Source: an uncultured Planctomycetia bacterium (GTDB lineage Bacteria; Omnitrophota; Gorgyraeia; 2-02-FULL-51-18; JAGOUK01). Taken from it: a stretch of 64,000 bases of DNA. Each line of letters opens with the position of its first letter. The stretch's first letter is position 1. The DNA is taken from assembly GCA_964430735.1 (NCBI GenBank), contig CAYSFB010000010.1, forward strand, positions 5,239 through 69,238. The letters run 5' to 3'. The notes beneath the pieces are model-generated. The model saw only the letters and a list, made by a program, of their open reading frames with translations, searched no databases and had not been told where the DNA came from. This document shows, piece after piece, positions 3,279 through 56,318 of the stretch. A program made the position numbers and the translations under genes.

Positions 3279-4223
3279 TTACTCCCCTTCTCCGCTTCGA
3301 ATCACATAGGTCTTTTTTCGCTGGACTTCGTGATAGGTTCGCATATTCATTTCGGCTACAAGACCTATCAGAACTAATTGTACTGCAATGATTTGCATAA
3401 AAGTAAATAGATAAAATAGTGGGTTTCCGGTGAGGGTGCGGCCTTCTGCGATTTTCATCACGATGGCCGCGAAGCAGATGATCCAGCCGACAAACGAGGA
3501 CATCAGGCCGAATTTGCCGAAAAACTGAATGGGGCTGGCCGAATAGCTCAGCAGGAATTTGACCGTGATCAGATCCAAAAAGACCCGCCAAATCCGGTTC
3601 AGGCCGTATTTGGATTTGCCGAATTTGCGGGGGTGGTGGAGCACGGGGACTTCGATGAGCCGCACGCCCATCCAGCTGGCCAGTGCCGGGATAAAGCGGT
3701 GCATTTCGCCGTACAGGTGCAGCCCTTTTGCGATTTCGGAGCGGTAGGCCTTGAGGGTGCAGCCGGAATCGCGGAGACGGATCCCGGTGACGCGACCGAT
3801 GATCCAGTTGGCGACATACGACGGAAAGTTGCGGATCGCCGAGTCCTGCCGCTTCTGGCGCCAGCCGCTGACGAGGTCATATCCTTCTTCGATTTTGGCG
3901 ACGAGCATCGGGATGTCGGCCGGGTCGTTCTGGAGGTCCGCGTCCAGCGTGATGATGATTTTGCCTTGGGCGTGGTCGAATCCGGCGGAGAGCGCGGCCG
4001 TTTGACCGAAGTTGCGGCGGAAATACACCGGCTTGTGATGAGAGTCGGCGGCGGCGATCTGCTTCATCACCTGCGCCGAGCGGTCGGTGCTTCCGTCATC
4101 CACCAGAATGCACTCATACGCATCCGAATAACCGGACATCACCTTGCGGATGGCGTCGGCTAAAAGGGGCAGGTTGGTTTCTTCGTTGTAGACGGGTACG
4201 ACGATGGATATTTTGGGAATCAT
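3279..4223 (-). CDS. GT2 polyprenyl-phosphate glycosyltransferase (DPM1/ArnC/GtrB-like) with C-terminal TM helices
   Basis: SIVVPVYNEETNLPLL...ILVDDGSTDRS...ITLDADLQNDP...GWRQKRQDS. These are canonical GT2 DxD/QxxRW-type motifs, followed by two C-terminal TM helices as in ArnC/GtrB. Confidence 0.8.
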   Translation of the reverse strand: MIPKISIVVPVYNEETNLPLLADAIRKVMSGYSDAYECILVDDGSTDRSAQVMKQIAAADSHHKPVYFRRNFGQTAALSAGFDHAQGKIIITLDADLQNDPADIPMLVAKIEEGYDLVSGWRQKRQDSAIRNFPSYVANWIIGRVTGIRLRDSGCTLKAYRSEIAKGLHLYGEMHRFIPALASWMGVRLIEVPVLHHPRKFGKSKYGLNRIWRVFLDLITVKFLLSYSASPIQFFGKFGLMSSFVGWIICFAAIVMKIAEGRTLTGNPLFYLFTFMQIIAVQLVLIGLVAEMNMRTYHEVQRKKTYVIRSGEGE

Positions 4224-4229
4224 ATTTTT

Positions 4230-5201
4230 CTAAACAATATCACAAACGTCCGCAGCCGCCCAGTCTTTGAAGGCCTGGTCGATGCTGCGGGGACGGATTC
4301 CGAAGGCGCGGATCGCCGGTTCGGGGTCGCGCGTGACGGCGTCATAGATATTCGCGTATTGCGCGGGGCCCCAGCCGGCGCCCGGTACGCGGCCGAACAC
4401 GGCGGCGGCCGTCCGCCAAACGAACTGGGGAATCGGGATGAAGAGCCGGCGCCAGCCGCGGCTTGCGGCGATCTTCCGCGCGAGCGTGTTGAGGTCCGCC
4501 GCTTCGGACCCGGCGATGGTGAACGTACCGGTGACACGCCGGCGCAGCGCTGTGACCGCCATCGGAACGAAGTCGTCGATATAAATCGGCTGAACCCGGG
4601 CCTTGAGGCCGCCGAACAGCGGAAACACCGGCAGGCGCCTCACCGTATCGGCCACGCGCCCCAGCCCGTGATGATCCCCCGGCCCGTAAACGAAGCACGG
4701 GTTCAGGATCAAATGGTTCTTGAGCTTCCGGACCGCCGCTTCGGCGCGGCGCTTGGATTCGGGATACGCGTCGGTGAGGTCCAGTCGCAGCGCGTTCTCG
4801 CTGCTGAGATAAATAAAGTATTCCATGCCGCGCGACGCGTACTCAGCGGCGAGCTGCTCGGTGACGCCGGCGTTGACGGCGAAGATCTCGTCGGGCTTCG
4901 CGGTGCGCAGGCATGCTGCGGCATGAATGATGATGTTCACACCTTCACAGGCGGCTGCGAGCGCGGCGCGGTCGCGCAGATCCATCGGAACGATTTCGAT
5001 GTTGGGGTGTTTGGGAACGCGGGAGACGGATCCGGGACGGACGGGACAGCGCAGCCGGCAGTCGGGAGCGAGCGCGCGGGCGAGATGCGAGCCGATGAAG
5101 CCGGACGCGCCGGTCAGCAGGATCAGCGGCCGGTCCACAAGCGGAATCGCAGCGAAAAAATCTCCCGGAGCATGTGGAACACCAGCCCCGGCTTGAGGCA
5201 T
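4230..5201 (-). CDS. NAD-dependent epimerase/dehydratase (SDR family)
   Basis: Rossmann motif LILLTGASGFIGSHLARAL. The ORF-track start overlaps the upstream gene by 79 nt. The true start may be the GTG near 5138 (LVDRPLILLTG). Confidence 0.75.
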   Translation of the reverse strand: MPQAGAGVPHAPGDFFAAIPLVDRPLILLTGASGFIGSHLARALAPDCRLRCPVRPGSVSRVPKHPNIEIVPMDLRDRAALAAACEGVNIIIHAAACLRTAKPDEIFAVNAGVTEQLAAEYASRGMEYFIYLSSENALRLDLTDAYPESKRRAEAAVRKLKNHLILNPCFVYGPGDHHGLGRVADTVRRLPVFPLFGGLKARVQPIYIDDFVPMAVTALRRRVTGTFTIAGSEAADLNTLARKIAASRGWRRLFIPIPQFVWRTAAAVFGRVPGAGWGPAQYANIYDAVTRDPEPAIRAFGIRPRSIDQAFKDWAAADVCDIV

Positions 5202-5833: not shown

Positions 5834-5834
5834 A

Positions 5835-7283: not shown

Positions 7284-7298
7284 CGTTGGGGTCCGTCG

Positions 7299-8760
7299 TT
7301 AAAAAAGCATTTGGTCGGCAAAAATCTTGGGGTACGCGAGCCAGGCCCCCCAAGCGGCGCAGGCCAGGGCTATTAAGCCGATTATCATGCCACCGGCCCG
7401 GCGGTTTTGTAAAAATCTTTCGAGACCGACCGCGGCGAGGATCGCCAGGGCCGGGTAGGCGGGATAAAAGTAACGGTGCTCCTGGTTGCCGGTGATGAAA
7501 AGGTTGTTCAGATTCGCGATGCAGAGAAAAAATACCGAGGGCCAGATCCAGAGCAGAACCAGGCTCCTGGTCCGGGAGTCCTTCAGGCGGCCGATGATGC
7601 CGGACCACGCTTGATTCCAAGTTGCGGCCGCAAAGCCAAACAACGGGCACAGAAAAACCGCGCCGAGAGAAAAAAGGATCGAAGGGTGAGGCCGCGAATG
7701 CACGGCCGCGAACCAGCCCGTCACGTCGCTCCCGAGGGCCGTCGTCATCCCCTGGACAGGCTGATACAGCGGATGCCCATACGTTTGGATCACTTTCCAG
7801 AACCAGAAGCCGGTCACCGCCAGAAAAGCGGCGCCGAGCAGCCAGAAGAAGGGATCCAAAATAATTTTGATCGTCCGGGATACGACGCCGGCCGCGCGGC
7901 CGGTTTTGCGGCCGTCGTCCCCGTCCTGCCAGAGGCACAGCGCGGCAAATCCTCCCAAGGCGGGCAGAATAAGACCGGTTCTTTGGTTGACCAGGACCGC
8001 CGCTCCGGCCATTGCGCCCGCGGCGAGGCCTGCCAGGGCGCGGTTCCGCTTCCACAGCAGCGCCAGCGACGCAACCGAGGCCGTCACAAAAAATGCGGCC
8101 GTGTCTTCAGTCAGGATCTTGTGGGCCAGCCAAATCGAAACGGGGTTCACCGCCAGAACGGCCGCACTCAGAACCGTGATTGGACGCGAGCCGAAAAGAA
8201 GCCACGCCAATACGGCGGTCAAAAAAATGAGGCTTAGGTTGAAGGTCAAAGGAACCAGCGCGGCCCACAGTTGATGACGCCAGATTTTCCAGGACTCGGC
8301 TGCATGCGCGAACGTCTTCGGGCCGTAGGAGAGCACTGCGAATACCGGAGTGTCGGTCTTTTGACCGAAGGCGGTCGATCCGACGAATATTTTGTGCGAA
8401 AGAGCGAGGATCGCCGGATACAGCGGCGCGCGCACGTGGAGCGGTTCGTCGTAATAGGATTGGCCGATGCTTTTCATGAGCGCCAGATAAGCTCCGGGCG
8501 AGTCGTCGGCGCCAGGCTTCACCGCATTGAACTCCATATGATTCTCTTTGGACGGACTCACGTCCAAGCGGCCCAGCGACACCGAGCGGAGGTTGTAACC
8601 GTCGAGTCCGGCATGCGAGAGCTTCATCGCCAGAATCACATACTGCGCCTGATCCCCCCGCCAATGCGGAAGCCATAACGCGCAGATCCGCAGCCCCAGC
8701 GCCGCCAGCAACACGAGCAACACGGCTGCGATCGGGAAGCGGCTCACGCTATTCTCCATT
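7299..8760 (-). CDS. ArnT/PMT-like GT-C membrane glycosyltransferase (paralog B)
   Basis: Carries the same loop-1 motif, LPHWRGDQAQYVILAMKL. The track ORF (to 8819) begins at a TTG. An internal ATG (MENSVSRFPIAAVLL) at about 8760 gives an N-terminus matching paralog A and a 16-nt overlap with the next gene. Confidence 0.55.
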
Positions 8761-9940
8761 TCCGCGCGGCCAAAAGCGCGGCGAACGGCAGTATCGGCGC
8801 GATCGCCCGGGCGTCCCAAACCGCTTCACGGCTGATCAGCCAGCGCGAAACGGCAAAACTCAGGATCAGAAGCCACAAAATGCCGACGTTCATCCCCTCC
8901 CGCTCGTCCGCGCGTGCGGACCGGTAGTTCTTTAAAAAAATTCCGGTCGAGAGAAGCGCGGCGGCCGGGACAAAACAAAGCATCGCCGCTTCGACCGGTA
9001 CGGGCAGCACGCCCGGCAACAGCCCCGCGGACACAGACGCGGAAACGTCGGAGAGCTGAACCACGGAGGCCTTCAGAGCCGCGTGCGCATAGTCGGGCCA
9101 GACTTTGTAAATCACCGCCGCGCCGGCGGCAAAAGCGAGGCAATAACCGTTGAGGGGTTTGGGATGCGCCCAAAAAGCCCAGACGGCGAAGGCGGGCAGA
9201 AACAAGAACGCGGACGCATCGGTCAAAGCCGCGATCCCCCAGCAGGCGCCGGCCAAAAGACAGCCGGCGGCGTTACGGTTCGAGATGAAGCGATGAAAAA
9301 GAACGACGGCGGCCAGGATCAGCGCGGACAGAGTCGCCTCAGGCCAAATCCGCGTGGAAATCAGAATGTGCGCCGGAACCAGCGCCACAAGCGCCGCGGC
9401 CAGAATCCCCGAAGCCGGGCCGAACATCCGCCATCCGGCGATCAGCGTCAGGAGAACGGCGGCCAAGCCGGAAACGAACGGGACCAGAACCGCCCATCCC
9501 TGCATCTGCAGAACGGCCCGGGAAGGCTGCGCCTTTTCGCCGGCCGAAGGTTCGGCGGCGCTGAGCGGATAAAACGGGAAGCGGGGGCCAAGCGTCTGAT
9601 GGTGAGTGTAAGCCAGCAGTGAGGGAAAAAACGGCGCCTTTAATTGGAAGGGGTTGGAATCCTGGACGGGCCAAACATCGAAGGAGGCGGGGGCGGCCGG
9701 ATCCGCCGTGACGGGCGAAGCGACCGGCAGAAGACGGCCGGATCCGCCGATTTCCGCGACTTCGCTGCGCCGCACTTCGGCGCCCGAGGGATGGTATCCG
9801 CTCAGACCCGGATGGGTTCCCATCTTCATCGCGAGCGTCGCGTAAGCGAGCTCGACTGGATCGGTGTGCGGAGCCCAAAACGCGCCGATCCTCAACAGCG
9901 CCGCCAGCGCGAGAATTCCGGCGGCCAGGATTACGCGCAT
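8744..9940 (-). CDS. ArnT/PMT-like GT-C paralog C with a degenerate loop-1 motif
   Basis: The track ORF 8744..10561 is over-extended across the upstream MTase gene. The internal ATG at 9940 (MRVILAAGILALAALLRIGAFWAPHTDPVELAYATLAMKM) gives a 399-aa paralog. The motif is degenerate, with HTDP in place of HWxGDQ. Confidence 0.5.
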   Translation of the reverse strand: MRVILAAGILALAALLRIGAFWAPHTDPVELAYATLAMKMGTHPGLSGYHPSGAEVRRSEVAEIGGSGRLLPVASPVTADPAAPASFDVWPVQDSNPFQLKAPFFPSLLAYTHHQTLGPRFPFYPLSAAEPSAGEKAQPSRAVLQMQGWAVLVPFVSGLAAVLLTLIAGWRMFGPASGILAAALVALVPAHILISTRIWPEATLSALILAAVVLFHRFISNRNAAGCLLAGACWGIAALTDASAFLFLPAFAVWAFWAHPKPLNGYCLAFAAGAAVIYKVWPDYAHAALKASVVQLSDVSASVSAGLLPGVLPVPVEAAMLCFVPAAALLSTGIFLKNYRSARADEREGMNVGILWLLILSFAVSRWLISREAVWDARAIAPILPFAALLAARKWRIA

Positions 9941-10722: not shown

Positions 10723-11838
10723 TCACCCTTCCTTGAGCGCCGGGATTAGGCTCATGTAGAGTTCATCGTATTGTTGCGCAAGCTCCCGGTTACTCGGCAG
10801 GAACATTGTACTTTGAACGGATCGTTTGTCGGTAAGCTTGAGCAAATCGTTCAACCGATCAGGCGCCGTTCTCAAATCCCTCAAAGGGAGCTCAAAACCG
10901 TTCATCCCTTCCCGAATCCGAATATGCGCATGTAAACCGGTCTTAAAAGCGAGCACCGGCAATCCCCACTTCATTGCCCGCGCCGCCGACAGGTTCAGCG
11001 GCTCGTTGGTCATAAGACTCAAAAATATATCTGAATGCTTCAGAACCCAGTCGATGCTGCGAAGATATCCGGTCAAGGTCACCCGTTCGGTTAAATTCTC
11101 CCGCTTGATCAAGCGTTCGAGCTCTTTTCTGTAGGCGCCTTCCCCGCAAATATACAAATGGGCTTTGGGCATGGAGGATCTGATCATGGACATCAACTGC
11201 ACGGCATATTGATGCCCTTTGTCCGGATGTAATCGGCCAACGCTGGCCAAGACCGGAGAGTTCTGTTTAAAAATTTCTTCTGAAGCGATGCAATCAGGAC
11301 GATCTGCGGCTTCATCCAGATCCACGGCGGCCTGATAAAGCGCCATTTTTTCAGAAGGCAGGCCCATCTCCCGATACTCGTCCGGATAATTCGTAAAAAT
11401 GACACAGGCTCTCTTCAGAAGCGCCCGGTAAGCGGGACGGCGGGCACAAAAGTAAGGCACCTGCTTTTCAGATGCCTCGATCGTAAATACGAATTTAGGC
11501 ACCTTCAATCGGCCGGCGAGCACAGAACCGAACACGAGAGATCCGTCCAGCCTGGCATGCAGTATGTCGGGAGCAAACTCCCGAATCATTCGCTCTAAAC
11601 AGGACCATGTCCCGGGATTTAAAAGCGTGAGGACGCTGTTGCGATCCGTAGATACGAAATCAACGGGTGCATACTCCCGAATACGCTTCGAAAATACATC
11701 GTCGCAGGAAGAAAGGGGTATGATTTTTAGATCGATGACGGACCGGTCACAAAACTTCGCATAATCAAAGATCGCTTGTTGAGTACCGCCTCCGGCAAGT
11801 GAATCTACCAGATAAAGAACCCGGATCTTTCGGCGCAT
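10723..11838 (-). CDS. GT4 glycosyltransferase (GT-B fold)
   Basis: Shows the GT4 pattern (...ICGEGAYRKELERL...), and its N-terminus is typical of GT-B proteins. Confidence 0.8.
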   Translation of the reverse strand: MRRKIRVLYLVDSLAGGGTQQAIFDYAKFCDRSVIDLKIIPLSSCDDVFSKRIREYAPVDFVSTDRNSVLTLLNPGTWSCLERMIREFAPDILHARLDGSLVFGSVLAGRLKVPKFVFTIEASEKQVPYFCARRPAYRALLKRACVIFTNYPDEYREMGLPSEKMALYQAAVDLDEAADRPDCIASEEIFKQNSPVLASVGRLHPDKGHQYAVQLMSMIRSSMPKAHLYICGEGAYRKELERLIKRENLTERVTLTGYLRSIDWVLKHSDIFLSLMTNEPLNLSAARAMKWGLPVLAFKTGLHAHIRIREGMNGFELPLRDLRTAPDRLNDLLKLTDKRSVQSTMFLPSNRELAQQYDELYMSLIPALKEG

Positions 11839-21652: not shown

Positions 21653-21656
21653 CGGA

Positions 21657-22682: not shown

Positions 22683-22727
22683 TTGGCTCCTGGTATCTCC
22701 TGTGATTTTCTTAAAGTCTGCGTCAGA

Positions 22728-42309: not shown

Positions 42310-42405
42310 GGTGATTACCGACGATGTTACTTAAGATTGTCATTCCTTGTAAAGTTCTTTTAGCGTCCGTAGCAGCTCCTGTGTTATCCTTTCGAAGGTC
42401 CTCGA

Positions 42406-43878: not shown

Positions 43879-44894
43879 GTTTCCCGAACCGGATCTCCGC
43901 CCCGCTTCGCGTCCTTGCGCTCGTCGCGGCCAACTGGCTTCTGCTCGAAGCGCTGCTGCAGGGCGTTCATCTCGTCTACCCGCTCGAAATGCCCAAACGG
44001 CTGGAAGCGGTTTATCGGAACCGCTGGATCCAGGGCTTCGACACTTACAACGGCCGGACACGCCTGTACAACTATCAACCCGGATCGACCGGCAGCACCA
44101 ACGGACATCCGATGCGGTTCAACCGCTGGGGTTTCCGCGGTGCGGAGTTCCAGACGCGGGCCGACGCCGGACCCGGGGCCTTTCGCATCATGGCGCTTGG
44201 GGATTCTTGTCTCATGGGCCAGGGAGTCGCCGAAGAAGACCGGTTGACCGAGCGTCTGGCGGCCGCGCTTCAACAGGAGCGGCCCGGCCGGCCGGTGGAA
44301 GTGATCAACCTCGGTGTGCAGGGGTTCGAAACGCTGCAGCAATACAAAATGATGCGGATCATGGGCGAAGCGGTGGGCCCGAACCTCGTCATGGTCGCGT
44401 TTTGGGTCAATGACCCCAATCTGCATTATGACCATTACAAGCCTTTTCGATTCCCGCTCAAAGGCTTTACCTCCAAACTCCGCGGCCTCATCACCGTCCG
44501 GCTGGCGGAGCGCGCGTATGACCGGATTTGGCGGCGGTTCAAAGGCATTCCCACACACGAGGAAGAAGTCGACCGGGCGTACGATCCGGCTTCGGAGGAT
44601 TGGAAAATTTTTGCCGCGTCAGTCCGCGGCATCGCCGAATGGTCGCGCAAAAAAACCGGACGGGCCCCGGTCGTCCTTTACCTCGCAGACCCGGCCGAAG
44701 GCCGGAAACGCGGCAAGTACGAATCGGTGCGCCGGGTTTTTGAACAGAGCGGATTCGACTGGCTCGAGATCCCGACCGGCCGGTACCGCCCGGTCTCCCG
44801 GTTTGACTTTCACCCCTCGGCCGCGACCCACGCTCTGTACGCGGAAGTCCTGAAGAACTACCTCACCGCGTCCGGGGCTCTGGAACCAGAATAA
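43875..44894 (+). CDS. SGNH/GDSL-family hydrolase, second copy
   Basis: The ATG overlaps the upstream stop (ATGA). FRIMALGDSCLMGQG is a GDS block. An N-terminal hydrophobic anchor is present. The track ORF 43563.. is over-extended. Confidence 0.55.
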   Translation: MSFPNRISAPLRVLALVAANWLLLEALLQGVHLVYPLEMPKRLEAVYRNRWIQGFDTYNGRTRLYNYQPGSTGSTNGHPMRFNRWGFRGAEFQTRADAGPGAFRIMALGDSCLMGQGVAEEDRLTERLAAALQQERPGRPVEVINLGVQGFETLQQYKMMRIMGEAVGPNLVMVAFWVNDPNLHYDHYKPFRFPLKGFTSKLRGLITVRLAERAYDRIWRRFKGIPTHEEEVDRAYDPASEDWKIFAASVRGIAEWSRKKTGRAPVVLYLADPAEGRKRGKYESVRRVFEQSGFDWLEIPTGRYRPVSRFDFHPSAATHALYAEVLKNYLTASGALEPE

Positions 44895-48182: not shown

Positions 48183-49744
48183 CGGACCGCGCCCTCGGAT
48201 ACCGGCGCCTTCCGTCGGTAGACCGTGTATGCACCCATGGGAATCCGATCAAAATGCGCACGGTCGAACCACTTTTTGGATTGCATCAAAAAGAACACCT
48301 CCATCGTCGGCAGCACCACGATGTCGCGGACCGACGCGCCGTCAAACCCGGGACCTGCGATCCGTCCGGCAAAGATCTTGAGCGGGCTCTTGGTCGATTT
48401 TTCGATGAGCATTTTTTCGAGCTCGGAGTACCGGGGGCGGAAGGTCGGAAAGTAAACGAGGTTGTGGCGGTCGTATTTGAGTTCGAGAAACAGACTCATG
48501 CCGAGCGTCCATTCAAAATGGCGCGCCGGATCCCCCGCGATCACGATCCGGTCCCCCGCGGCCGTGCCCGAAGCCACCTTTTCGATCACCGCGCCGACTT
48601 CCGCGCATTCCTTCCTGAAGTCGCCGGCATCCCGGAACGCCAGCGCCCATTGGGCGCCGAGCGCCGCGATCAGGACGGCCGCGACCGCAACGCGGACAGG
48701 CGCCGGAATACGGGCAAAAAGCGTCTCGAAGCATCGGACTGTCAGATACGCCGTGCCGAGCGCCACGGGCAAAAAGTAGTGCTGATAAAAACCGGTCTGC
48801 TGAAACAGCAGGATGCTGGGAGCAATCACCATCGCGGCGAAGATCAGGTCGCCGGCAAGCGTCGCCGCCGGTGCGCCGTCCCGGCGCCGAGAGCCGAGCG
48901 CCGCGATCGCGATCACCGCTGCCAGATAACCGCCGCACGACAACGCCACCTGTCCGGCCGCCGCGGCAAACAACGACGAATCGAAGCCCTTGTATCCCGC
49001 ATAACCGTTACCCATCGGCCCCGGTCCCTTGAGAATCACAGTCAGATCCACGAGCACCCAAGCCGCCAAAAGCAGCGCGTGCGGCAGGCTCTCCACGACG
49101 GCCTGAAGAAACGTCCGCCGGTGCAGACGCATCCAGGACCAAACCCGCAAAAAAACAAACGCCGGGATGACCGGCATAAAACTCTCTTTGACGAGGCTTG
49201 CGGCGATCAAACTCAACACAAAGACCGCTGAAGCGGCGGCCGAGGCCTTTCCAGCCCGGACCTCAGCCGCCAACGCCAGCAGCGCGATCGCAAAAAAGAA
49301 AAGCCCCCAACTCTCGTACGTCGCGAGCCGCCACCAGGTCGACAGCTGCGGTCCGCAAATCGTGAGCGCCGAAAAAAGCAGCGCTCCGGCACGCCCGCTC
49401 CCGAGCCAGCGCATCGCCAAAAACAGCAAAAACGCGGTGATTACGCCCAGAACCCCTCGGACAAACCGGTAAATAAAAAAGTCGGATCCTAAAAACGCGG
49501 ATTCCAGAATCCGCCCGAGGCAATTGAAGGGCCGGAAGCGAATTTTAAAGTCCTCGACCTGATACCGCCAGTAACGGCCAGGAATTGATTCGGTCTGCAG
49601 CTCTTGACGGAGGGTGAGGATCTCGTAGTCCTCGGTGAGCGAAAAACCGGCCGTCAGCGCGCCGCTCCCCGCGGACAATCCGAAGATCATCGCGGCGAAC
49701 AGGAGGACGGCGGCGAGGTTCTCCTTAATGCGGGATTGTGTCAT
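48179..49744 (-). CDS. ArnT/PMT-like GT-C membrane glycosyltransferase
   Basis: 521 aa. Loop 1 reads SLTEDYEILTLRQEL. A roughly 150-aa C-terminal soluble domain follows. Confidence 0.5.
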   Translation of the reverse strand: MTQSRIKENLAAVLLFAAMIFGLSAGSGALTAGFSLTEDYEILTLRQELQTESIPGRYWRYQVEDFKIRFRPFNCLGRILESAFLGSDFFIYRFVRGVLGVITAFLLFLAMRWLGSGRAGALLFSALTICGPQLSTWWRLATYESWGLFFFAIALLALAAEVRAGKASAAASAVFVLSLIAASLVKESFMPVIPAFVFLRVWSWMRLHRRTFLQAVVESLPHALLLAAWVLVDLTVILKGPGPMGNGYAGYKGFDSSLFAAAAGQVALSCGGYLAAVIAIAALGSRRRDGAPAATLAGDLIFAAMVIAPSILLFQQTGFYQHYFLPVALGTAYLTVRCFETLFARIPAPVRVAVAAVLIAALGAQWALAFRDAGDFRKECAEVGAVIEKVASGTAAGDRIVIAGDPARHFEWTLGMSLFLELKYDRHNLVYFPTFRPRYSELEKMLIEKSTKSPLKIFAGRIAGPGFDGASVRDIVVLPTMEVFFLMQSKKWFDRAHFDRIPMGAYTVYRRKAPVSEGAVR

Positions 49745-50747
49745 ATCGAGGCATTTTATCGGACGCGGAGCGCATCGGTCGATTATTTAATTCCTCCAGC
49801 GCGCGGTTCAGGTCCTGCGTGAATCTTCGCGCGCCGTACACGTTCAAATGGTCGGGGTCCATGAACATCTGATCGCCATAGACCTGTTTGGCTGCAAAAT
49901 CATAATAAACAACATTCGCCCCGCCGGCTGCGGCATCCATCGCGGAACGGATCATGCGGTGCGCCCGCTCCGCCGCATCCGGAGGCAAACGATCACGGTA
50001 ATTTGACGTCACCGGCGGAGTCACGATCAGAACCCGCCACCCCCGTTCCCGGGATTTGCGGATCAGCTCCGTGAGCGCCTCCCGGTTCCGGGACTCGGCA
50101 TCCGGACTGTAGATGCCCGAAAAATGAAGCAGGCTGCGTCGACGGCTCCAAGCGCTTTGCTCGGATTCCGAGAGCCGGTTGAACCGGCTGAGCGGCGATG
50201 TCCGGGGGTCGTCCGATCCGCTGCCGATGCCGGGAACCAGGCGCTGCGTCAGCCGCCGGACAAAAATCGACCGGTACCGCAAAAATCGGCTTCGGGTCAT
50301 GAGCTCTGTTTTGAGCCGAAGTATCCAATCATCCGGATGGATCCCCAAAGAACGGTAGTTAACCAGGATCGATTTTTCAAAGTCTTGCAACCGGTAACCG
50401 AATGAAAAATAGCTGACTCCCAGAACGACTTGATTGACGTCCGTCAAAGACGGCCCGTACTTTTCGAGCAGCTCCAGATCCAGCGAAAGGTCCTGGCTGG
50501 TCCGGGCCATCTTGAACGATGGCGTCCTGGAAGCAGACGCGAGCCAGGCGGACTGCATGTGGGAATTCCCAAAAATGACCGTCCTGACGCCGTGAGCTGC
50601 GCCCGACGCAAGCCCCTGATAGTGTTCCGTAAATTCCCGGTCAGTCGCGTCCGTTTCAAAAATCCTGCGTGCGGTCCATTCGCAGGCAGCAAAACCTGCG
50701 GAGAAGAGCAGGGCAAAAACGATCACCGGAACCATTTTGTGCTTCAT
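49725..50747 (-). CDS. DltD/AlgJ/AlgX-like SGNH-related protein (partner of MBOAT)
   Basis: The true start is probably the internal MKHKMVPVIVFALLF (ATG at about 50747), 2 nt after the MBOAT stop. It has a signal anchor, then TVIFGNSHMQS. Confidence 0.5.
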   Translation of the reverse strand: MKHKMVPVIVFALLFSAGFAACEWTARRIFETDATDREFTEHYQGLASGAAHGVRTVIFGNSHMQSAWLASASRTPSFKMARTSQDLSLDLELLEKYGPSLTDVNQVVLGVSYFSFGYRLQDFEKSILVNYRSLGIHPDDWILRLKTELMTRSRFLRYRSIFVRRLTQRLVPGIGSGSDDPRTSPLSRFNRLSESEQSAWSRRRSLLHFSGIYSPDAESRNREALTELIRKSRERGWRVLIVTPPVTSNYRDRLPPDAAERAHRMIRSAMDAAAGGANVVYYDFAAKQVYGDQMFMDPDHLNVYGARRFTQDLNRALEELNNRPMRSASDKMPRYDTIPH

Positions 50748-50749
50748 GA

Positions 50750-52195
50750 TCAAAATTGAAAATAAATGAATTGCTGCCCCTGGTCCGTTCCAAAAACGAG
50801 CACCGTAAGAGCCAGGCATGCGACAATCGCCGCACGGGCCGTCCCGCGGGGAACAAGAGAACTCAAGGATTGTCCGGAGGCCCTCAGCCGGATCTCTGCG
50901 GTGAACATCAAACCCGCCAGAATAAATACCGTCCAGAATTCGTCGGGACGGACCGGCAGGCCGAACGCGGGGCGGCCGAACAGCGCCTGCCACAAGGTCC
51001 AGGGCGCTTGAAGCACCCTCGCCGCTCCGAATGCGAGAGCGCCGATGATGTCAAAGGCCTGGGCAATGTCCCGGGAACGGAAAAAAATCCATCCCGCCAT
51101 CACGGCGTGAAATGTCCACAGAGTGCCGATCCAGCGCGGAAGCCCAAACCGCCTCGCCACCCAGGATTCCGCGACCATCGCGATACCATGATACATGCCC
51201 CAGGCAAGGTACGTGAGGCTGGCTCCGTGCCACAACCCGCTCAAGATGAAAACGGCGAGAATGTTCACAATCCAACGTGCCTGGGACCCGCGGTTGCCTC
51301 CCAGCGGCACATAAACGTAATCCCGAAACCAGGTGGATAGAGAAATATGCCACCGGGACCAGAATTCCCTGAGCGAAGCGGATCCGTACGGATGATCAAA
51401 GTTCATCATGAGCCGGAATCCCAGGAGTCTCCCCGATCCGACTGCGATGTCCGAATAACCTGAAAAATCACAATAGATCTGGACTCCGAAGGCGCAAGTA
51501 GCAACCCAGAGCGCGACCGGATCGAATCTTCCGGAATCGGAATAGACCGAATTCACGATCGGGGCAAGCCGGTCCGCCACGACCATTTTCTTGAAAAGGC
51601 CCCAAGCGATAAGGCTAATGCCTGATCCGGCAAGCTCTGCGGAGAACCGGTGTTTTTCATAAAATTGGGCAATCAGACGGCCGGAACGCTCAATCGGTCC
51701 CGCGACCAGCTGCGGAAAAAACGATACGTACAACGCGACGTCTCCAAATCGTTTGCGGACGGAAGCCGGGTCCCGATAGACATCGATCGCGTATCCAAGC
51801 AACTGAAACGTGTAAAACGAAATGCCCACGGGCAGCAGCACATGTGAAGCGCCGAACTCGTGCCGCAAACCGATTCCCGCAAGCGCCCGCTCGGTCAAAT
51901 CACTCAAAAAATTCCAATATTTAAAATAAATCAAAATGCCCAGATTGACCAAAAGACAGGCGCCCAGCCACAGGGATCTCTGGATTCCGGAGGAACTGCC
52001 TGCGATTCGGATCGTCGTAAACCAGACGACTGCTGTCGACAGAAGCATGAGCAGCGTGTACTCCGGCCTCCAGCACGCATAAAAGCCGTAACTCGCCGCC
52101 AGGAGCATGGCATTTCGGCATTGAAAAGGAAGTCCGTAGTAGAGCAGACAGACGAGCGGAAGAAAAAGGAGGTATTCGAGCGAAGAAAAATTCAT
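50750..52195 (-). CDS. MBOAT-family membrane-bound O-acyltransferase (AlgI/DltB-like)
   Basis: 481 aa. The conserved MBOAT His region is WHISLSTWFRDYVYVPLGGNR...GLWHGASL. Confidence 0.85.
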   Translation of the reverse strand: MNFSSLEYLLFLPLVCLLYYGLPFQCRNAMLLAASYGFYACWRPEYTLLMLLSTAVVWFTTIRIAGSSSGIQRSLWLGACLLVNLGILIYFKYWNFLSDLTERALAGIGLRHEFGASHVLLPVGISFYTFQLLGYAIDVYRDPASVRKRFGDVALYVSFFPQLVAGPIERSGRLIAQFYEKHRFSAELAGSGISLIAWGLFKKMVVADRLAPIVNSVYSDSGRFDPVALWVATCAFGVQIYCDFSGYSDIAVGSGRLLGFRLMMNFDHPYGSASLREFWSRWHISLSTWFRDYVYVPLGGNRGSQARWIVNILAVFILSGLWHGASLTYLAWGMYHGIAMVAESWVARRFGLPRWIGTLWTFHAVMAGWIFFRSRDIAQAFDIIGALAFGAARVLQAPWTLWQALFGRPAFGLPVRPDEFWTVFILAGLMFTAEIRLRASGQSLSSLVPRGTARAAIVACLALTVLVFGTDQGQQFIYFQF

Positions 52196-52225
52196 GGGAG
52201 CGCGGCCGTACAGGCCCTCCGGAAA

Positions 52226-53887
52226 TCAGTACACCCGGAAGAGCGCGTCACGGTCGTCCTCGTACACTTTTTGATACGCGGCGGCGTATCTCCTGGACAG
52301 CTGGGTGATCCCCGCATAGATCCGGCGCTCTTCGGCGCTCAGGGGGTCCCAGCTCATGCGCTTTTTACGGATCAGCACGTATTTGACGCGGTGGTGCTGC
52401 AGAATTTTCTTTTGGAGCGCCAAGTCGTCGAACGGCAGCTTGCCGATCAGGGGCATCGAGAACTTCCGCCCCAGGTACCCCTGCAAGTCCGGCAGGCCGT
52501 GCACCGTCTGTTCCATGAGGTAACGGCCCTTGTCCCAAGGGAGGTTCATGATCGCGAAGTTTTTCTGCGCGTAATCCGGGTCCTGGAGCACCGCTTCGTA
52601 CACCGGGGGCAATTCCACCGGTGTCACATCCGACCCGATGGAATAAAAGTCCATAAACGCCAGACCGGCCACCAGCACGAGGCCCAGCTGGTGCTTGAGT
52701 TTTTTGGATTCCGACCGGAACAGCGCCCGCACCGCGAGCGCCGCGAGCGCCGCCCAAAACAGGTAGCCAAACGCCATCGTGCGCGACGGATTGCGGGCGT
52801 GCTGTACGAACGGCAGCGACTCGAACAACGCATACGGCAGCGGCACGCCGGTGAGCCGACCCTGAACATGCAACTCGACTCCGAGCGCGAGCACCGCGAA
52901 GAACAAAAAAGCCGCCAAATAAGGAAAAGCCCGGGTCCGGATCTTCCAAAGGGCCGCCGCGACGAGCAGCAGGTTCACCCACCCCAGATAAACCGCCTGT
53001 TCCCAGACCGGCCCCGTCATCCCGGCGCTCGCCGCCTTGACCGCGTCGACGCCGGCCAGCGCATGATACGCATGCGGCACGAAAAACCCGAGCAGGTCCG
53101 CGACGAACAGGTTGTGTCCGGGCAGATGCGCCGAATCCGGATGCGCCAGGCCGATTCGGATCATCGGAACCAGCACCGGCGCCGTCAGCAGCAGCGCGCC
53201 TCCGCCGATCGCGAGCAGGTTCACCGCCCCCCGCACCGAAAAAACCCGGCGTTCCTTCCAGGCGGTCCAGGGATACGAAAGCGCCAGGCACATCCCGCCG
53301 TAGATCAGATAATTCCATTCCGAATAGGCGCTCAAAGCGAGACCCGCGGCGGCGCCCGCGCGGTTCCCCCATCCTCCGGACCGGTGCGCCCGGATCAAAA
53401 ACAGGACGAACAACGGAATGAACTGGATCGACGCGACCGACGGATGATGCAGCGCGTGGGCGAAGTGCATCGGGTTGAACGCGTAGACGAACGCGCCGAA
53501 GAGCGACGCGACACGGTCGCGCGTCACCTCCATCAGCAGCAGGTAGGAAAAAATCCCGGCCAGCACGAACGACAGCAGCACGGTCAGGTTGTACGCCGCG
53601 GCCAGGCCGAAGAGCGGCTTGAGCACCGCGGCGGCGGCGACGCCGGTGTAGAAATAGTTGGCGTACCACAGCCCCATCCCCTCCGGGAAATACATCAGCC
53701 GGGTGTGAAAAAATTCGAGCGACGGGTCGAACAGGGCCTTGGAGCCGTACCACAGGAACCAGACGAACTGGGTGTTGTCTTCGGGCGGACCGATGATCGC
53801 GGACCCGAACCTGGAAAAGACGGGATAAAAAAACAGCGCGGTGAGGGCGGAAAAGAAGACGGTGACGGCGAGCGCGCGCTTCACCAT
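52226..53887 (-). CDS. Polytopic membrane protein (GT-C/YfhO-like, tentative)
   Basis: 553 aa with at least twelve TM helices and an IGPPEDNTQFVWFLWYG loop after TM1. Its start overlaps the stop of the upstream fusion gene. Confidence 0.45.
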   Translation of the reverse strand: MVKRALAVTVFFSALTALFFYPVFSRFGSAIIGPPEDNTQFVWFLWYGSKALFDPSLEFFHTRLMYFPEGMGLWYANYFYTGVAAAAVLKPLFGLAAAYNLTVLLSFVLAGIFSYLLLMEVTRDRVASLFGAFVYAFNPMHFAHALHHPSVASIQFIPLFVLFLIRAHRSGGWGNRAGAAAGLALSAYSEWNYLIYGGMCLALSYPWTAWKERRVFSVRGAVNLLAIGGGALLLTAPVLVPMIRIGLAHPDSAHLPGHNLFVADLLGFFVPHAYHALAGVDAVKAASAGMTGPVWEQAVYLGWVNLLLVAAALWKIRTRAFPYLAAFLFFAVLALGVELHVQGRLTGVPLPYALFESLPFVQHARNPSRTMAFGYLFWAALAALAVRALFRSESKKLKHQLGLVLVAGLAFMDFYSIGSDVTPVELPPVYEAVLQDPDYAQKNFAIMNLPWDKGRYLMEQTVHGLPDLQGYLGRKFSMPLIGKLPFDDLALQKKILQHHRVKYVLIRKKRMSWDPLSAEERRIYAGITQLSRRYAAAYQKVYEDDRDALFRVY

Positions 53888-55332
53888 CAGACGAATTTGA
53901 GTTTTTTAAGCGCGATCGCGCACATGCCGAGCAGGAGCGTTCCGTGTTTGAACCGTTCGATCTTGATGTCGCCGTAACGCCGCTCGTAATAGCGGACCGG
54001 GAGTTCCAGAATCCGCATGTTGAGCTTCGCGGCCCCGAACAGGAGGTCGAAGTCGCCGAACGGGTCGAATTCGCCGAAATAAGCGCGGTTGGCCATGATT
54101 TTTTCGTAGTCGGACTTGTAGAGCGCCTTCGTGCCGCAGAGGGTGTCCTTGAGGCGCTGGCCCAGGAGGTATGTAAACGCGAGGCTGAAGAACTTGTTCC
54201 CCCAGATGTTGAGGAAGCGCATCGCTTTTTCCTCCATCGGATAGACGAGGCGGGAGCCGTTGATGAATTCACCCCGGCCCGAAACAAGCTGACGGTAAAA
54301 CTTGGGAGTATCCTCCGGCGCGACCGAGATGTCGGCGTCGAGGATGATGAGGATGTCGCCCTTGGCCTCGCGCATCCCCAGATGGACCGCCGCGCCCTTG
54401 CCCTTCGTCGCGCCCTGGTCCAGAAGGCGGATGTTCTTCTCGGGATGGAGCGCCTGCATCCGGCGGATTTCGTCCTGCGTGCCGTCTTTGGAGTTTCCGT
54501 CGATGAAGACCATTTCGAGCTCCCCGTCGAAGGCGGGCGTGCGCTCGACGAGCTCGGCGATGTTGCCGCGTTCGTCCTTGCACGCGACGATGAGCGAAAC
54601 GCCCGGGTTCTTTTTCTCGCGCGCGGCGAGCGGACGCGCGACCAGGAACTCCGCGAGACAGAGCTGGTTCACCCCCGGCAGGTTCGCGACACAGCCGTTC
54701 AGGAACCAGGACACGAGCGGAAGATAAAACGGAAACAGGATCTTCTTGGTGCGTTTGACCGTTTCAAATCCGGCCATGGTCAGCAGGTTTTCGAGGTCGT
54801 CCTGCGAGAGCCAGTTCTGCGGGCCCTGATTCACGCGGATGCCCAGCCAGTTGCCCAGGCGCAGCAGCGGCTCCCATAAATAATTGTAATAACAGACGAC
54901 CACGCGGGTCTGGGGCTTGACCGACTGGCGGAGGTTCTCGAAAACCCGCTGGACGTCGTCCAAATGCCCCACCAGATCGGACAACACGACGTAATCGGGA
55001 GGTTCGGCCGGACGGTACGTTTCCGCGCAGCCCTCGACGAACTCCAGCGCCGGATGGGCGGCGCGGGCCTCGCGGACCATCACGGGGCTCAATTCGACGC
55101 CGACGCCGTGCGACGGCTTGAGGGCGGCCAGCAGATCGCCGTCGCCCGATCCCAGCTCGAGGACGCGGTACCCATCGGGAATCAAAAAGCGCAGATAATC
55201 GTGCAGCTTCCGGTAATAGTAGGAATTGCGGCGCTTGGAGCGCTTGAACTGCGGAGCGAGGCGGTCGAAGCGCTCCCGGGTCTCCTCGAGATGCTTGCGG
55301 GTCCGGGCCGGGAGGGCAAAAAAATCGCTCAT
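53887..55332 (-). CDS. Bifunctional fusion: N-terminal class I SAM methyltransferase plus C-terminal GT2 (DPM1-like) glycosyltransferase
   Basis: The MTase domain carries [12 protein letters not shown]. The GT2 domain carries [15 protein letters not shown]...[11 protein letters not shown]...[10 protein letters not shown]. The start was trimmed to ATG about 55332 ([11 protein letters not shown]), which overlaps the fcl stop. Confidence 0.7.
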
Positions 55333-56318
55333 GCGCGGCTCCGGTCCGACGCGACGAACCAATCCCAGGTCTTCTTCAGCCCCTTGTCAAAATCGACGGC
55401 GGCCTTGAATCCGAATTCGCGTTTCGCCCGGCTCACGTCCAGACGCCGGCGCGGCTGGCCGTTGGGTCTGGACGTGTCCCAGACGATCCGGCCGTCGAAG
55501 CCGGACAATTTTTGGATCACGGCCGCCAGACGGCGGATCGTGATTTCCCGTCCGGTTCCCAGGTTCACCGGCTCGCGGCCGTCGTACCGCTCGAGGGCCA
55601 GCGCGATCGCCCGCGCGCAATCTTCGACATACAGGAACTCGCGCGACGGCGATCCGTCGCCCCAGAGCGTGACTTGCCGGTCGCCGCGCCGCTTCGCCTC
55701 ATAAAATTTGCGCATCAGCGCCGGAATGACGTGGCTGGACTCGAGGTCGAAGTTGTCGTGCGGGCCGTACAGGTTGACCGGCAGCAGGTAGATGGAATTA
55801 AATCCGTATTGCTCGCGGTACCCCTGCGACTGGACGAGCATCATTTTTTTGGCCAGCCCGTACGGGGCGTTGGTTTCTTCCGGGTATCCGCTCCAAAGAT
55901 CCTTCTCCTTGAACGGAACCGGTGCAAATTTGGGGTAGGCGCAGATCGTTCCGAGTGCGACGAATTTGTCGACGCCGGCGAGCCGCGCCTCTTCGATCAG
56001 GAATGCGCCCATGAGCAGATTGGAATAGTAGTAAAGGCCCGGGTTCGCACGGTTGGCTCCGATGCCCCCGACACGCGCAGCCAGGTGGATGACGGCGGCC
56101 GGCTTGTACTTCCTCATCATCGCCTGCACGTCGCGCTGGACGGTAAGGTCGAATTCCCGGTGTGCGGGCGCCACGACCTTGCGGTAACCCCGGGCCTTGA
56201 GCTCGGCGGTCAGATGCCGGCCCAAAAAACCCGAACCGCCCGTGACGAGCACGGTGCGGTTCTTAAAACGTGTTGGAATGGTTTTAGGCTTTTGGCGCTT
56301 GGGCATTTCAGGCGTCAT
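55329..56318 (-). CDS. fcl: GDP-L-fucose synthase (GDP-4-keto-6-deoxy-D-mannose 3,5-epimerase/4-reductase)
   Basis: Aligns along its length with E. coli Fcl: [20 protein letters not shown]...SHVIPAL and [16 protein letters not shown]. Confidence 0.75.

Follow-up and report, generated by a model that had tools for sequence, protein, structure and literature searches.

A locus of six putative lipid-carrier sugar synthases and twelve GT-C transferases in an uncultured member of Candidatus Omnitrophota

The window analysed here is a stretch of 64 kb from a MAG of an uncultured, diderm member of Candidatus Omnitrophota, in which a locus of approximately 53 kb combines six predicted lipid-carrier single-sugar synthases (GT2) with twelve GT-C membrane transferases (table 1). 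Together, the GT2 and GT-C genes take up about 45% of these 53 kb, far beyond chance, and the open reading frames are present where a preliminary description had placed them. The donor and GT-C genes named in that description all lie on the minus strand and are transcribed from high to low coordinates.

Table 1. Features of the locus, in coordinates of the window; functions are putative and follow family membership.
Coordinates	Strand	Feature	Evidence
3093..3266	-	57-aa single-TM ORF, downstream of ArnC-like GT2	also gene-called in independent assembly
3279..4223	-	GT2 polyprenyl-phosphate sugar synthase, full-length ArnC/GtrB-like	PF00535 116 bits
4230..5201	-	NAD-dependent sugar epimerase/dehydratase	PF01370
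5123..5833	-	DPM1-type GT2, soluble, 236 aa, no TM helix	PF00535
5835..7283	-	GT-C, PMT_2-like, trio 5835/7299/8744	PMT_2 E 5e-4, under gathering score
7299..8819	-	GT-C, same trio	E 1e-39 vs 5835, 7e-14 vs 8744
8744..9940	-	GT-C (PMT/PMT_2)	PF02366 29.4 bits, over gathering score
9931..10719	-	SAM-dependent methyltransferase, overlooked in preliminary description	LDVGCGTG motif I; inspection only
10723..11838	-	Leloir GT4 glycosyltransferase, cytoplasmic	PF00534
11842..17001	-	Methyltransferase, radical-SAM/SPASM enzyme, AsnB-type amidotransferase, second methyltransferase	
17017..18129	-	Second GT4 glycosyltransferase	PF00534 120 bits
18126..19139	-	LPG_synthase_TM (MprF flippase-domain-like) membrane protein	PF03706 44.8 bits, over gathering score
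19057..20499	-	Multi-pass membrane protein, 480 aa	
20513..24025	-	DegT aminotransferase, RmlB-like 4,6-dehydratase, hexapeptide acetyltransferase, WbqC	
26337..27914	+	4-TM protein with sulfatase/alkaline-phosphatase-like domain	Sulfatase E 0.086; motifs by inspection
27964..29070	+	DegT-family sugar aminotransferase	PF01041 410 bits
29101..30990	-	AsnB-type glutamine amidotransferase, last gene of conserved core	
30993..32780	-	GT-C (PMT_2), C-terminal soluble domain	PF13231 44.3 bits
32777..33460	-	DPM1-type GT2, soluble, 227 aa	PF00535
33480..34970	-	GT-C, PMT_2 superfamily	PF13231/PF02366 in homologs at 40-64% identity
34967..36652	-	GT-C (PMT_2)	PF13231 35.6 bits
36663..37385	-	DPM1/AglJ/PpgS-like GT2, soluble, 240 aa	PF00535
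37382..38973	-	NeuD/WbpD-like N-acetyltransferase, UDP-GlcNAc 3-dehydrogenase-like oxidoreductase	
39012..40619	-	GT-C, small divergent family without Pfam model	all-helical, ArnT-like
40610..41575	-	GDSL/SGNH hydrolase or acyltransferase	PF13472
41572..42309	-	DPM1-type GT2, soluble, 245 aa	PF00535
42406..43878	+	GT-C (PMT family)	PF02366 31.5 bits, over gathering score
43875..44894	+	GDSL/SGNH protein, N-terminal signal anchor	
44863..46776	-	GT-C (PMT_2/PMT)	PMT_2 over gathering score
46773..48182	-	GT-C, family GT87 (PimE-like)	PF09594 43.5 bits
48179..49744	-	GT-C candidate	PMT E 0.056; L041 ortholog at same position
49725..52195	-	MBOAT (DltB/AlgI-like) and SGNH partner	PF03062 86 bits; DltB model 159 bits
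52226..53887	-	GT-C (DUF6311-type), C-terminal soluble domain	
53887..55362	-	Methyltransferase-GT2 (DPM1/AglJ-type) fusion	domain matches
55329..56318	-	Fcl-like (GDP-6-deoxyhexose synthase-like) epimerase/reductase, first gene of locus	

The six GT2 proteins of table 1 were tested against PF00535, and all match it well over the gathering score. The best model for each is one of a polyprenyl-P glycosyltransferase (ArnC, PgfS, AglJ, Dol-P-hexose transferase or PpgS), aligned over approximately 200 residues; only the N-terminal 100 residues or so align with processive synthases such as PgaC. Likewise, a joint profile of the GT2 proteins aligns at full length with the PDB structures of Pyrococcus DPMS (5mlz, 203 bits), ArnC (158-161) and GtrB (108), other GT2 structures matching over its N-terminal half only. 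The QxxRW motif was sought in the six proteins and found in none, a synthase-type membrane domain is absent from all of them, and each has a DxD motif, in a region that is degenerate ('NDKD') in 36663. This evidence bears out the earlier view of polyprenyl-phosphate-monosaccharide synthases, and by family all six are of the DPM1/ArnC/GtrB type, not processive. TM helices are predicted in one of the six, 3279..4223, which has two at its C-terminus (residues 238-290) and scores 242 bits with the NCBIfam ArnC model over residues 2-309; the other five are soluble. The adjacent 57-aa ORF has no match in Pfam. As previously described, the protein at 53887 contains a DPM1-like GT2, but fused to a methyltransferase domain.

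Among the transferases, a Pfam gathering score is exceeded by 8744 (PMT), 30993, 34967 and 44863 (PMT_2) and 46773 (GT87), as well as by 42406, for which an independent gene call also gives PMT. The earlier estimate of about twelve GT-C genes agrees with the twelve counted, even if it had overlooked this plus-strand gene. Calling them all paralogs holds for 5835 and 7299, both paralogous to 8744, and for 33480 and 42406 (32% identity, E 1.5e-52), but the proteins are otherwise mostly unrelated at BLAST level, and the set spans at least five divergent lineages. In 5835, the loop 'WLPHWQGDQSQY' follows TM1, while 7299 has no Pfam match of its own. The ORF listed as 8744-10561 is over-extended, its GT-C start being placed near 9940, and that of 44863-47007 probably begins near 46776. 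A probable, weakly placed GT-C is 48179, which hhalign relates to the 33480 family with 62% probability (E 7.7e-5). In fold, 52226 is similar to AglB, STT3 and PglB, which are oligosaccharyltransferases, and also to AftA and AftD. Family, homolog and fold evidence thus agree that these large membrane proteins are GT-C enzymes, as had been proposed, and not transporters or ligases.

Stop and start codons overlap by four bases or one at 55362/53887/52226, 48182/48179, 34970/34967, 32780/32777 (where GT-C 30993 is translationally coupled to its GT2 by four bases) and 37385/37382, in accord with the preliminary description. The modules are co-directional on the minus strand, as that description held, but a GT2 does not always lead: in the 5123 block the order is 8744, 7299, 5835 and then GT2 5123. 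Nor are two of the supposed modules uninterrupted, for a GDSL gene separates GT2 41572 from GT-C 39012, and the MBOAT and SGNH genes stand between 52226 and 48179. Relatives, at approximately 40-85% identity, retain a syntenic core of three GT2 and 4-7 GT-C genes. In L041, L042, L043 and L044 the order is kept, at 39-87% identity, from the Fcl-like gene, the methyltransferase-GT2 fusion and the DUF6311 GT-C to, further on, the 3-dehydrogenase, acetyltransferase, GT2, one or more GT-C, GT2, GT-C and AsnB. The AsnB gene 29101..30990 is conserved in the first three of these, the fusion has 59-81% identity in L004, L043 and L044, and the modules that the window has in addition are missing from L041 and L043. 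Shown by these analyses are the families and folds of the products, the operon-like coupling of the genes and the synteny kept among relatives.

Domain searches find the nucleotide-sugar tailoring genes adjoining the modules, as previously stated. Those of 20513..24025 jointly form an amino-dideoxyhexose pathway, and the presence of two GT4 genes means that cytoplasmic enzymes make some of the glycan. The MBOAT gene and its partner, which has a weak SGNH match, constitute an extracytoplasmic O-acylation pair; the start of the GDSL gene 40610..41575 follows an independent gene call. The product of 26337..27914 is possibly an LtaS/EptA-like periplasmic phosphotransferase. This gene and 24932-26344 had been among the neighbours regarded as secreted coiled-coil proteins; instead, they resemble a membrane-anchored sulfatase-type enzyme and a SAM methyltransferase, respectively, the real coiled-coil/TPR proteins lying at both ends of the window. 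Genes for a secretin and a T2SS-C-like protein flank the locus, as do coiled-coil proteins with signal peptides.

No domain of Wzx, Wzy/WaaL, ABC, Wza/Wzc or WbaP/WecA-type PGT was found in any scanned ORF of the 64-kb window, as expected from the preliminary description. GtrA, SMR/ArnEF, MATE and Wzx flippases are also absent among the scanned window ORFs and the intergenic gaps hold no small multi-TM ORF; hence the flipping step lacks a canonical component. It was nevertheless inaccurate to consider the locus free of cytoplasmic and flipping machinery, for it encodes the two GT4 enzymes, the LPG_synthase_TM protein 18126..19139, which has at least six TM helices and would be the only candidate lipid flippase of the window, and the 480-aa multi-pass protein, without match in Pfam, NCBIfam or PDB.

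How might these products work together? Judging from their families, nucleotide sugars would be tailored in the cytoplasm along three routes: by 3-dehydrogenase, aminotransferase and N-acetyltransferase; by 4,6-dehydratase, aminotransferase, acetyltransferase and WbqC; and by the Fcl-like enzyme. Further changes would come from several methyltransferases and from the two amidotransferases of AsnB type. Each of the six DPM1/ArnC/GtrB-type GT2 enzymes would then load one sugar onto polyprenyl phosphate, presumably undecaprenyl phosphate, at the cytoplasmic face. After flipping of the lipid-linked monosaccharide, with the LPG_synthase_TM protein as sole candidate agent, the twelve GT-C enzymes of at least five lineages would pass the sugars to an acceptor at the periplasmic face. 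Outside the cytoplasm, the MBOAT/SGNH pair, two more GDSL proteins and possibly the sulfatase-type enzyme would add non-sugar substituents. Since the transferases are twice as many as the donor synthases, each donor probably serves several linkages, much as RgtE does for RgtA-D and as the PPM and DPA donors do in mycobacteria. We infer the donor identities, flipping, periplasmic orientation and a single acceptor common to all modules; this could be a protein, a polysaccharide or a glycolipid, whether lipid A/core or some other.

The locus is, in our judgement, likely to be a cell-envelope glycan locus in which the known 'three-component' module of extracytoplasmic glycosylation recurs in tandem. 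The GT2 type, junction overlaps, synteny, periplasmic tailoring genes and three-component precedent support this reading; against it weigh the lack of a canonical flippase, five of six synthases without TM helices, the 'NDKD' of 36663, the weak placement of 48179 and the two GT4 genes. Three-component periplasmic glycosylation in diderms comprises the Gtr (GtrA/GtrB/GtrC of Shigella and Salmonella), Arn, Rgt, Lgm and GT136 (pentofuranose) systems, with Gram-positive examples in CsbB/GtcA/YfhO, GacI/J/K/L, SccN/M/P/Q and lactococcal CsdAB/CD/EF (PMC11127046). The GT2 plus GT-C module is therefore well described (PMC11127046), contrary to the notion of an architecture new to diderms, and only its number and density are unusual. 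As in these systems, a polyprenyl-P-monosaccharide synthase (GT2 or other) is genetically paired with a GT-C, the donor would be a product of the cytoplasm that is used extracytoplasmically, and sugar-tailoring genes adjoin the pair. However, they have 1-3 pairs, against six synthases and twelve GT-C in one place here; the lack of a GtrA, SMR or MATE flippase and the synthase-methyltransferase fusion are further differences. The TM anchor of GtrB and ArnC is missing from five locus synthases, which resemble DPM1 and GacI. Both of the latter need a membrane partner. DPM2/3 homologs were not recognised in the locus, which also differs, as a bacterial operon, from the eukaryotic and archaeal Dol-P-sugar pathways (DPM1-3 with PMT, ALG3/9/12, PIG-M; AglJ/AglD).

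Could the modules instead decorate side chains after assembly, in the manner of Gtr serotype conversion? A Wzx/Wzy or ABC O-antigen or capsule would then be encoded elsewhere in the genome and initiated outside the window, the GT-C modules adding only variable branches and O-acyl groups. Most diderm three-component systems characterised so far serve for such decoration (PMC11127046), the locus combines two GT4 genes with sugar pathways typical of O-antigen clusters, module content differs among relatives as expected of a diversifying surface-antigen locus, and LPS/capsule glycosyltransferases are reported in Omnitrophota hypervariable loci (bioRxiv 10.64898/2026.06.07.730766). We hold this only as a tentative possibility: twelve GT-C far exceed any known side-chain system, neither the 64 kb nor the relatives' loci of approximately 20 kb contain Wzx, Wzy, WaaL or PGT, and the retention of a core of 4-7 GT-C even at about 40% identity speaks for a structural role and against an optional one. 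Rather unlikely is the strong reading of the preliminary description, periplasmic chain building like that of mycobacterial LM/LAM or arabinan, in which a lipoglycan or polysaccharide would be polymerised mostly from polyprenyl-P-monosaccharides without need of Wzx/Wzy/ABC export; an 'assembly line' that makes the glycan entirely in the periplasm goes beyond what the window DNA shows. The mycobacterial and corynebacterial LM/LAM and arabinogalactan pathways (Ppm1, PimE, MptA-C, AftA-D, EmbA-C) do share many GT-C served by few polyprenyl-P-sugar donors, a GT87 member, the AftA/AftD-like fold of 52226 and, in Ppm1, a soluble catalytic domain. In contrast, the Omnitrophota host is diderm, the locus has neither a DPA pathway (UbiA-type synthase, DprE1/2) nor a GT53 Emb-type enzyme, and amino, acetamido, deoxy and methylated sugars are predicted in place of mannose and arabinose.

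Decoration of lipid A or core, with amino or acidic sugars capping lipid A phosphates or core sugars, recalls Arn (ArnB/C/A/D/T/E/F), Rhizobium Rgt (RgtE, RgtA-D) and Bordetella Lgm through the ArnC-like two-TM GT2 3279-4223, the ArnT-like fold of 39012, the DegT aminotransferase and the Rgt precedent of a single donor supplying several GT-C. It is improbable nonetheless, as scores fall far under the Arn equivalog cut-offs (ArnC 242 vs 529, ArnB-like 303 vs 631), ArnA, ArnD and ArnE/F are absent, the window has no lpx, kdt or waa genes linking it to lipid A, and the modules are many more, twelve transferases exceeding the plausible number of lipid A and core sites. We give equally little credence to protein O-glycosylation like that of PMT, TfpW or PglL, whose targets would be proteins that are secreted or exposed at the surface, for example pilins, the coiled-coil/TPR proteins beside the locus or the giant surface proteins of Omnitrophota; the matches of several GT-C to PMT/PMT_2 protein-mannosyltransferase families, the resemblance of 52226 to AglB, STT3 and PglB, and flanks bearing secretin, T2SS-C-like and signal-peptide coiled-coil genes are consistent with it.

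In the preferred reading of tandem three-component modules, the type of module is already known from Gtr, Arn, Rgt, GT136 and the Gram-positive Csb/Gac systems. What is unusual is its multiplicity and density, the solubility of five of the six synthases and the absence of a GtrA/SMR/MATE flippase, the window holding, in enlarged form, a locus that is conserved among relatives.

The six GT2 proteins of the locus can be assigned by family to the polyprenyl-phosphate sugar synthases of the DPM1/GtrB/ArnC type, in agreement with the preliminary description, which had read them as donor synthases. Their best NCBIfam matches span about 200 residues and include ArnC, PgfS, AglJ, the haloarchaeal Dol-P-hexose transferase and mycobacterial PpgS; alignment with processive synthases, PgaC among them, is confined to the first ~100 residues. 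When a joint profile built from the six domains was run against all PDB sequences, the top match was Pyrococcus DPMS (203 bits), followed by three ArnC entries (158-161 bits) and GtrB (108 bits). These cover profile positions 4-239, namely the whole domain including its C-terminal acceptor-side region, while the remaining GT2 structures in the PDB cover only positions 1-130, the N-terminal nucleotide-binding half. That the proteins might instead be processive synthases is contradicted by the lack of the QxxRW motif ([QR]xxRW) in all six and by their zero to two TM helices, with no multi-TM channel domain of the kind found in processive enzymes. The DxD motif is present throughout, in the degenerate form NDKD in the protein encoded at 36663 (genes are named here by their start coordinate). 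Only 3279-4223 ends in the pair of TM helices that characterizes GtrB and ArnC; the other five proteins are devoid of the C-terminal anchor of GtrB, ArnC and archaeal DPMS, and resemble the soluble subtype known from eukaryotic DPM1, GacI of streptococci and the catalytic domain of Ppm1 (Ppm1-D2). All three of these depend on a membrane partner. One synthase, 53887-55362, carries a SAM methyltransferase at the N-terminus of its DPM1/AglJ-type GT2 domain. This fusion is retained at 59-81% identity in three related loci (L004, L043 and L044), always with a DUF6311-type GT-C gene following it, and suggests a methylated lipid-linked sugar donor.

Among the transferases, five genes exceed the Pfam gathering score, namely 8744 (PMT), 30993, 34967 and 44863 (PMT_2) and 46773 (GT87), which upholds that part of the earlier inventory; a sixth, 42406-43878 (PMT, 31.5 bits), had been overlooked in it, and this gene is called as PMT on an independent assembly too. 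The ORF 42324-43298 (+), which overlaps this genuine PMT gene, is Arg/Gly/Pro-rich, has no matches and was rejected as spurious. Gene 5835 falls below the PMT_2 threshold and is a paralog of 7299 (E 1e-39) and 8744 (E 1e-11), which are in turn related to each other (E 7e-14). The 33480 protein has no Pfam match of its own, and PF13231/PF02366 is present in homologs sharing 40-64% identity with it; its identity to 42406 is 32% (E 1.5e-52). Gene 48179 is a probable GT-C judging from its PMT similarity (E 0.056) and from its hhalign match to the 33480 family (62%, E 7.7e-5, 278 columns), and has an ortholog in the same position of the related locus L041. The proteins 52226 and 39012 have no significant match to any family or PDB sequence, and PDB sequence searches with 52226, 48179 and the 39012 family profile returned nothing meaningful. 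Since a precomputed PF19830 (DUF6311) match of 52226 was not reproduced by our own Pfam scan, its assignment rests on the fold. Alignments by hhalign of 39012 with the 33480 and 52226 families were negative, and this protein could be resolved as a putative GT-C only through structure prediction. It belongs to a small and very divergent family without Pfam or NCBIfam model: a word-indexed search of 5.8 billion proteins retrieved only 39012 itself, and exhaustive HMMER searching gave 114 representatives (35% identity for the best). The family has the N-terminal consensus NDxSRLAxxESL...D...YSDKPP.

These large membrane proteins have the multi-pass core (7-13 TM helices) of the GT-C fold. By inspection, each of the twelve opens with a TM helix that has K/R residues ahead of it and an acidic loop motif (D/E) behind it, with an acidic residue in the first loop; their predicted extracytoplasmic orientation follows the positive-inside rule. 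In the families aligned for modelling, D37 is invariant for 52226 and D61 for 39012, while the 33480 family has a nearly invariant E43 and an invariant D147. The earlier proposal of about twelve GT-C paralogs holds for the class, 48179 being a probable member, and fails for close paralogy, since BLAST links only the trio 5835/7299/8744 and the pair 33480/42406.

The gene map obtained by scanning ~60 ORFs of the window with Pfam (table) shows most genes tightly packed on the minus strand between 3.2 and 56.3 kb. Synthase and GT-C genes adjoin each other in the same direction, with overlapping stop and start codons, and together fill about 45% of the 53 kb (six synthases, twelve GT-C). The window gave no match in Rfam and tRNA scans. 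The mechanically called ORF 8744-10561 (-) conceals, in a different reading frame, a distinct gene for a SAM methyltransferase; the initial ~200 codons of this ORF are Arg/Pro/Gly-rich and probably untranslated.

Genes of the locus and its flanks from high to low coordinates, the direction of transcription of most genes (single numbers are start coordinates)
Feature	Coordinates	Strand	Position
Truncated gene	~62048-64000	+	window end
CBS, 2-oxoacid:ferredoxin oxidoreductase, HemN-like, deformylase			high-end flank, outside locus
Fcl-like epimerase/reductase	55329		first in transcription order
Methyltransferase-GT2 fusion	53887-55362	-
553-aa membrane protein	52226		after fusion
MBOAT (DltB/AlgI-like)	50750	-	pair spans 49725-52195
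SGNH protein	49725	-
Membrane protein	48179		after MBOAT/SGNH
GT87	46773
PMT_2	44863
GDSL protein	43875-44894	+	start approximate
PMT family	42406-43878	+
GT2	41572
GDSL protein	40610-41575	-
Membrane protein	39012-40619	-
GFO/IDH/MocA oxidoreductase	37966		after 39012
Hexapeptide acetyltransferase	37382
GT2	36663
PMT_2	34967
Membrane protein	33480
GT2	32777		after 33480
PMT_2	30993
AsnB	29101
DegT	27964	+	plus-strand block
Sulfatase-like 4-TM protein	26337-27914	+	plus-strand block
Methyltransferase-like	24932	+	plus-strand block
SRAP (SOS-response-associated peptidase)	24041-24733	-	mid-locus
WbqC, acetyltransferase, RmlB-like dehydratase, DegT			classical sugar-pathway stretch
Unknown 480-aa membrane protein	19057-20499	-	after DegT
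LPG_synthase_TM protein	18126-19139
GT4, methyltransferase, AsnB			after 18126
Radical-SAM/SPASM	13079-14128	-
Methyltransferase, GT4
Methyltransferase	9931-10719	-
Membrane protein	8744		locus end
Membrane protein	7299
Membrane protein	5835
GT2	5123
Epimerase	4230
GT2	3279-4223
57-aa TM ORF			last
Secretin and T2SS-C-like gene	753-2952	-	low-end flank, outside locus
Truncated gene	1-~745	-	window end

As for export, the Pfam scans bear out the claim that the 64-kb window is free of conventional machinery: domains of Wzx/MOP, Wzy/O-antigen ligase (WaaL), Wzz/Wzc, Wza, ABC transporters and WecA/WbaP were not detected in the scanned ORFs, nor were those of GtrA, SMR/ArnEF, MATE or Wzx-like proteins, and the intergenic gaps of the locus contain no small multi-TM ORF. 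The candidate flippases are 18126, a member of the LPG_synthase_TM (MprF flippase-domain) family, and the membrane protein 19057. A PDB sequence search with the former gave nothing meaningful. The latter is multi-pass with a soluble C-terminal domain of ~170 aa, and its gene overlaps that of the LPG_synthase_TM protein by 83 bases; it has no detectable relative in Pfam, NCBIfam or PDB, and hhalign against the 39012 family was negative.

The sugar-pathway genes fall around the synthases. A UDP-GlcNAc 3-dehydrogenase-like gene, a DegT and a NeuD/WbpD-like acetyltransferase adjoin GT2 36663, a second set comprises RmlB-like, DegT, acetyltransferase and WbqC genes, the Fcl-like gene adjoins the fusion, and two AsnB-type amidotransferases are also present; all these assignments lie below equivalog cut-offs and therefore indicate chemistry rather than identity. 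The radical-SAM/SPASM enzyme within the sugar-pathway block is 81% identical in the related locus L042. Non-sugar substituents are also predicted: the MBOAT protein (159 bits with the DltB model), its SGNH neighbor and two further GDSL proteins imply extracytoplasmic O-acylation. The MBOAT/SGNH pair sits between GT-C genes; the compact loci L041 and L043 lack both it and the GDSL genes. The sulfatase-like protein 26337 has four N-terminal TM helices and C-terminal alkaline-phosphatase/sulfatase-like motifs (DGY, PHSPY, ADHG); with a weak Pfam match (E 0.086) and nothing meaningful among PDB sequences, it is possibly an LtaS/EptA-like phosphotransferase.

The flanking oxidoreductase alpha subunit shares 93% identity with that of a single MAG contig and 62-70% with those of many Candidatus Omnitrophota MAGs; 33480 homologs carry the annotation Omnitrophica. 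The same contig recurs across multiple runs belonging to one metagenome project. In L041, proteins are 61-90% identical to those of the window, except for three more divergent GT-C genes (28-48%), and follow the order DUF6311 GT-C, 33480-like, 48179-like, GT87, oxidoreductase, acetyltransferase, GT2, 34967-like, 33480 ortholog, GT2, 30993 ortholog, AsnB and, further on, DegT and SRAP, the latter two adjoining as in the window. L042 retains the same core at 40-70% identity. L043 is a compact form beside the same CBS/oxidoreductase genes (39-76% identity), with the order Fcl-like, fusion, 52226-like, oxidoreductase, acetyltransferase, GT2, 33480-like, GT2, 30993-like, AsnB, 5835-like GT-C, methyltransferase, WbqC, acetyltransferase, dehydratase and DegT; in L044 the upstream half of the gene order is seen. 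The linkage of synthase and GT-C genes is retained in all four, and their shared gene order shows that, in this clade, three synthases with four to seven GT-C genes form a core conserved under purifying selection. The extra modules of the window are MBOAT/SGNH, 44863, 42406 and the 41572-GDSL-39012 unit, together with the trio, where one gene has become three. Since the cluster is absent beside the oxidoreductase in most Omnitrophota loci centered on that gene (L005-L040), the arrangement is clade-specific and not phylum-wide; scanning metagenomes with the 33480 family found only four loci, and the searched literature on Omnitrophota contains no mention of the locus. At the low end, the gene of a 197-aa protein weakly similar to T2SS-C/T2SS-B precedes that of the secretin (PF00263, two Secretin_N domains), and this region directly adjoins the ArnC-like GT2, an adjacency not found in relatives. 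The truncated genes at the window ends, the low one directly downstream of the secretin, encode a signal peptide or TM helix, long Ala/Gln/Glu-rich coiled coils and TPR-like segments.

The proposed pathway would run from sugar tailoring through GT2 transfer to polyprenyl phosphate and flipping to GT-C transfer outside the cytoplasm, with donors, flippase, orientation and acceptor all putative. Such a sequence is an established three-component system (PMC11127046), so that the earlier view of an architecture not yet described does not apply to the GT2/GT-C module itself; the locus shares the genetic linkage of synthase and GT-C with these systems but differs in that no canonical GtrA/SMR/MATE flippase was found in the window. 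It also departs from the Arn pathway (242 bits for the ArnC model, whose cut-off is 529, 303 for ArnB, whose cut-off is 631, only a weak partial match to ArnA, and no ArnD or ArnEF domains in the scanned ORFs), from Wzx/Wzy or ABC loci for O-antigen or capsule, whose initiating phosphoglycosyltransferase and export genes were not found in the 64 kb, and from mycobacterial arabinan/LAM assembly, of which the locus has neither a UbiA-type DPPR synthase, nor DprE1/2, nor GT53 Emb proteins. The mechanism is already known, and the single families are either known or new lineages of a known fold; what is unusual is the density of six synthases and twelve GT-C, the fact that most synthases are soluble, the absence of a canonical flippase from the window and the host phylum.

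In functional terms, what does the locus build? One candidate answer is that it decorates an O-antigen or capsule made conventionally, as its GT4 genes and the variation of accessory modules between relatives would allow, and the genome beyond the 64-kb window keeps this reading alive; however, the conserved multi-GT-C core favors more than an optional side-chain role, as does the absence of export genes both from the 64 kb and from the loci of relatives. The other candidates are LAM-like periplasmic chain building, capping of lipid A/core and protein glycosylation. GT-C genes are twice as many as synthases, suggesting that each lipid-sugar donor is used for several linkages. A bolder scenario, which we consider rather unlikely, is that this Omnitrophota clade builds a major envelope glycoconjugate mostly in the periplasm, in LAM-like fashion and without Wzx/Wzy/ABC, its soluble DPM1-type synthases docking on the translationally coupled GT-C proteins or on the LPG_synthase_TM protein, and the resulting synthase-flippase-transferase units taking the place of GtrA-type flippases.

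In Gram-negative bacteria, glycosylation outside the cytoplasm from polyprenyl-phosphate sugars usually counts as an add-on, limited to one or two modifications of side chains or lipid A, and to our knowledge it is regarded as the main assembly route only for the mycobacterial envelope. The practical value of the locus is limited until its acceptor or glycan structure is established. It offers two GT-C lineages without a usable family model (39012-type and 52226/DUF6311-type) and a methyltransferase-synthase fusion, besides a naturally occurring system in which to study the anchoring of soluble DPM1-type synthases and the flipping of their products without GtrA/SMR proteins. Omnitrophota are an uncultured, ultra-small and possibly host-dependent phylum, and a conserved array that can expand to six synthases and twelve GT-C proteins would show that this route can dominate the synthesis of envelope glycans in a diderm.
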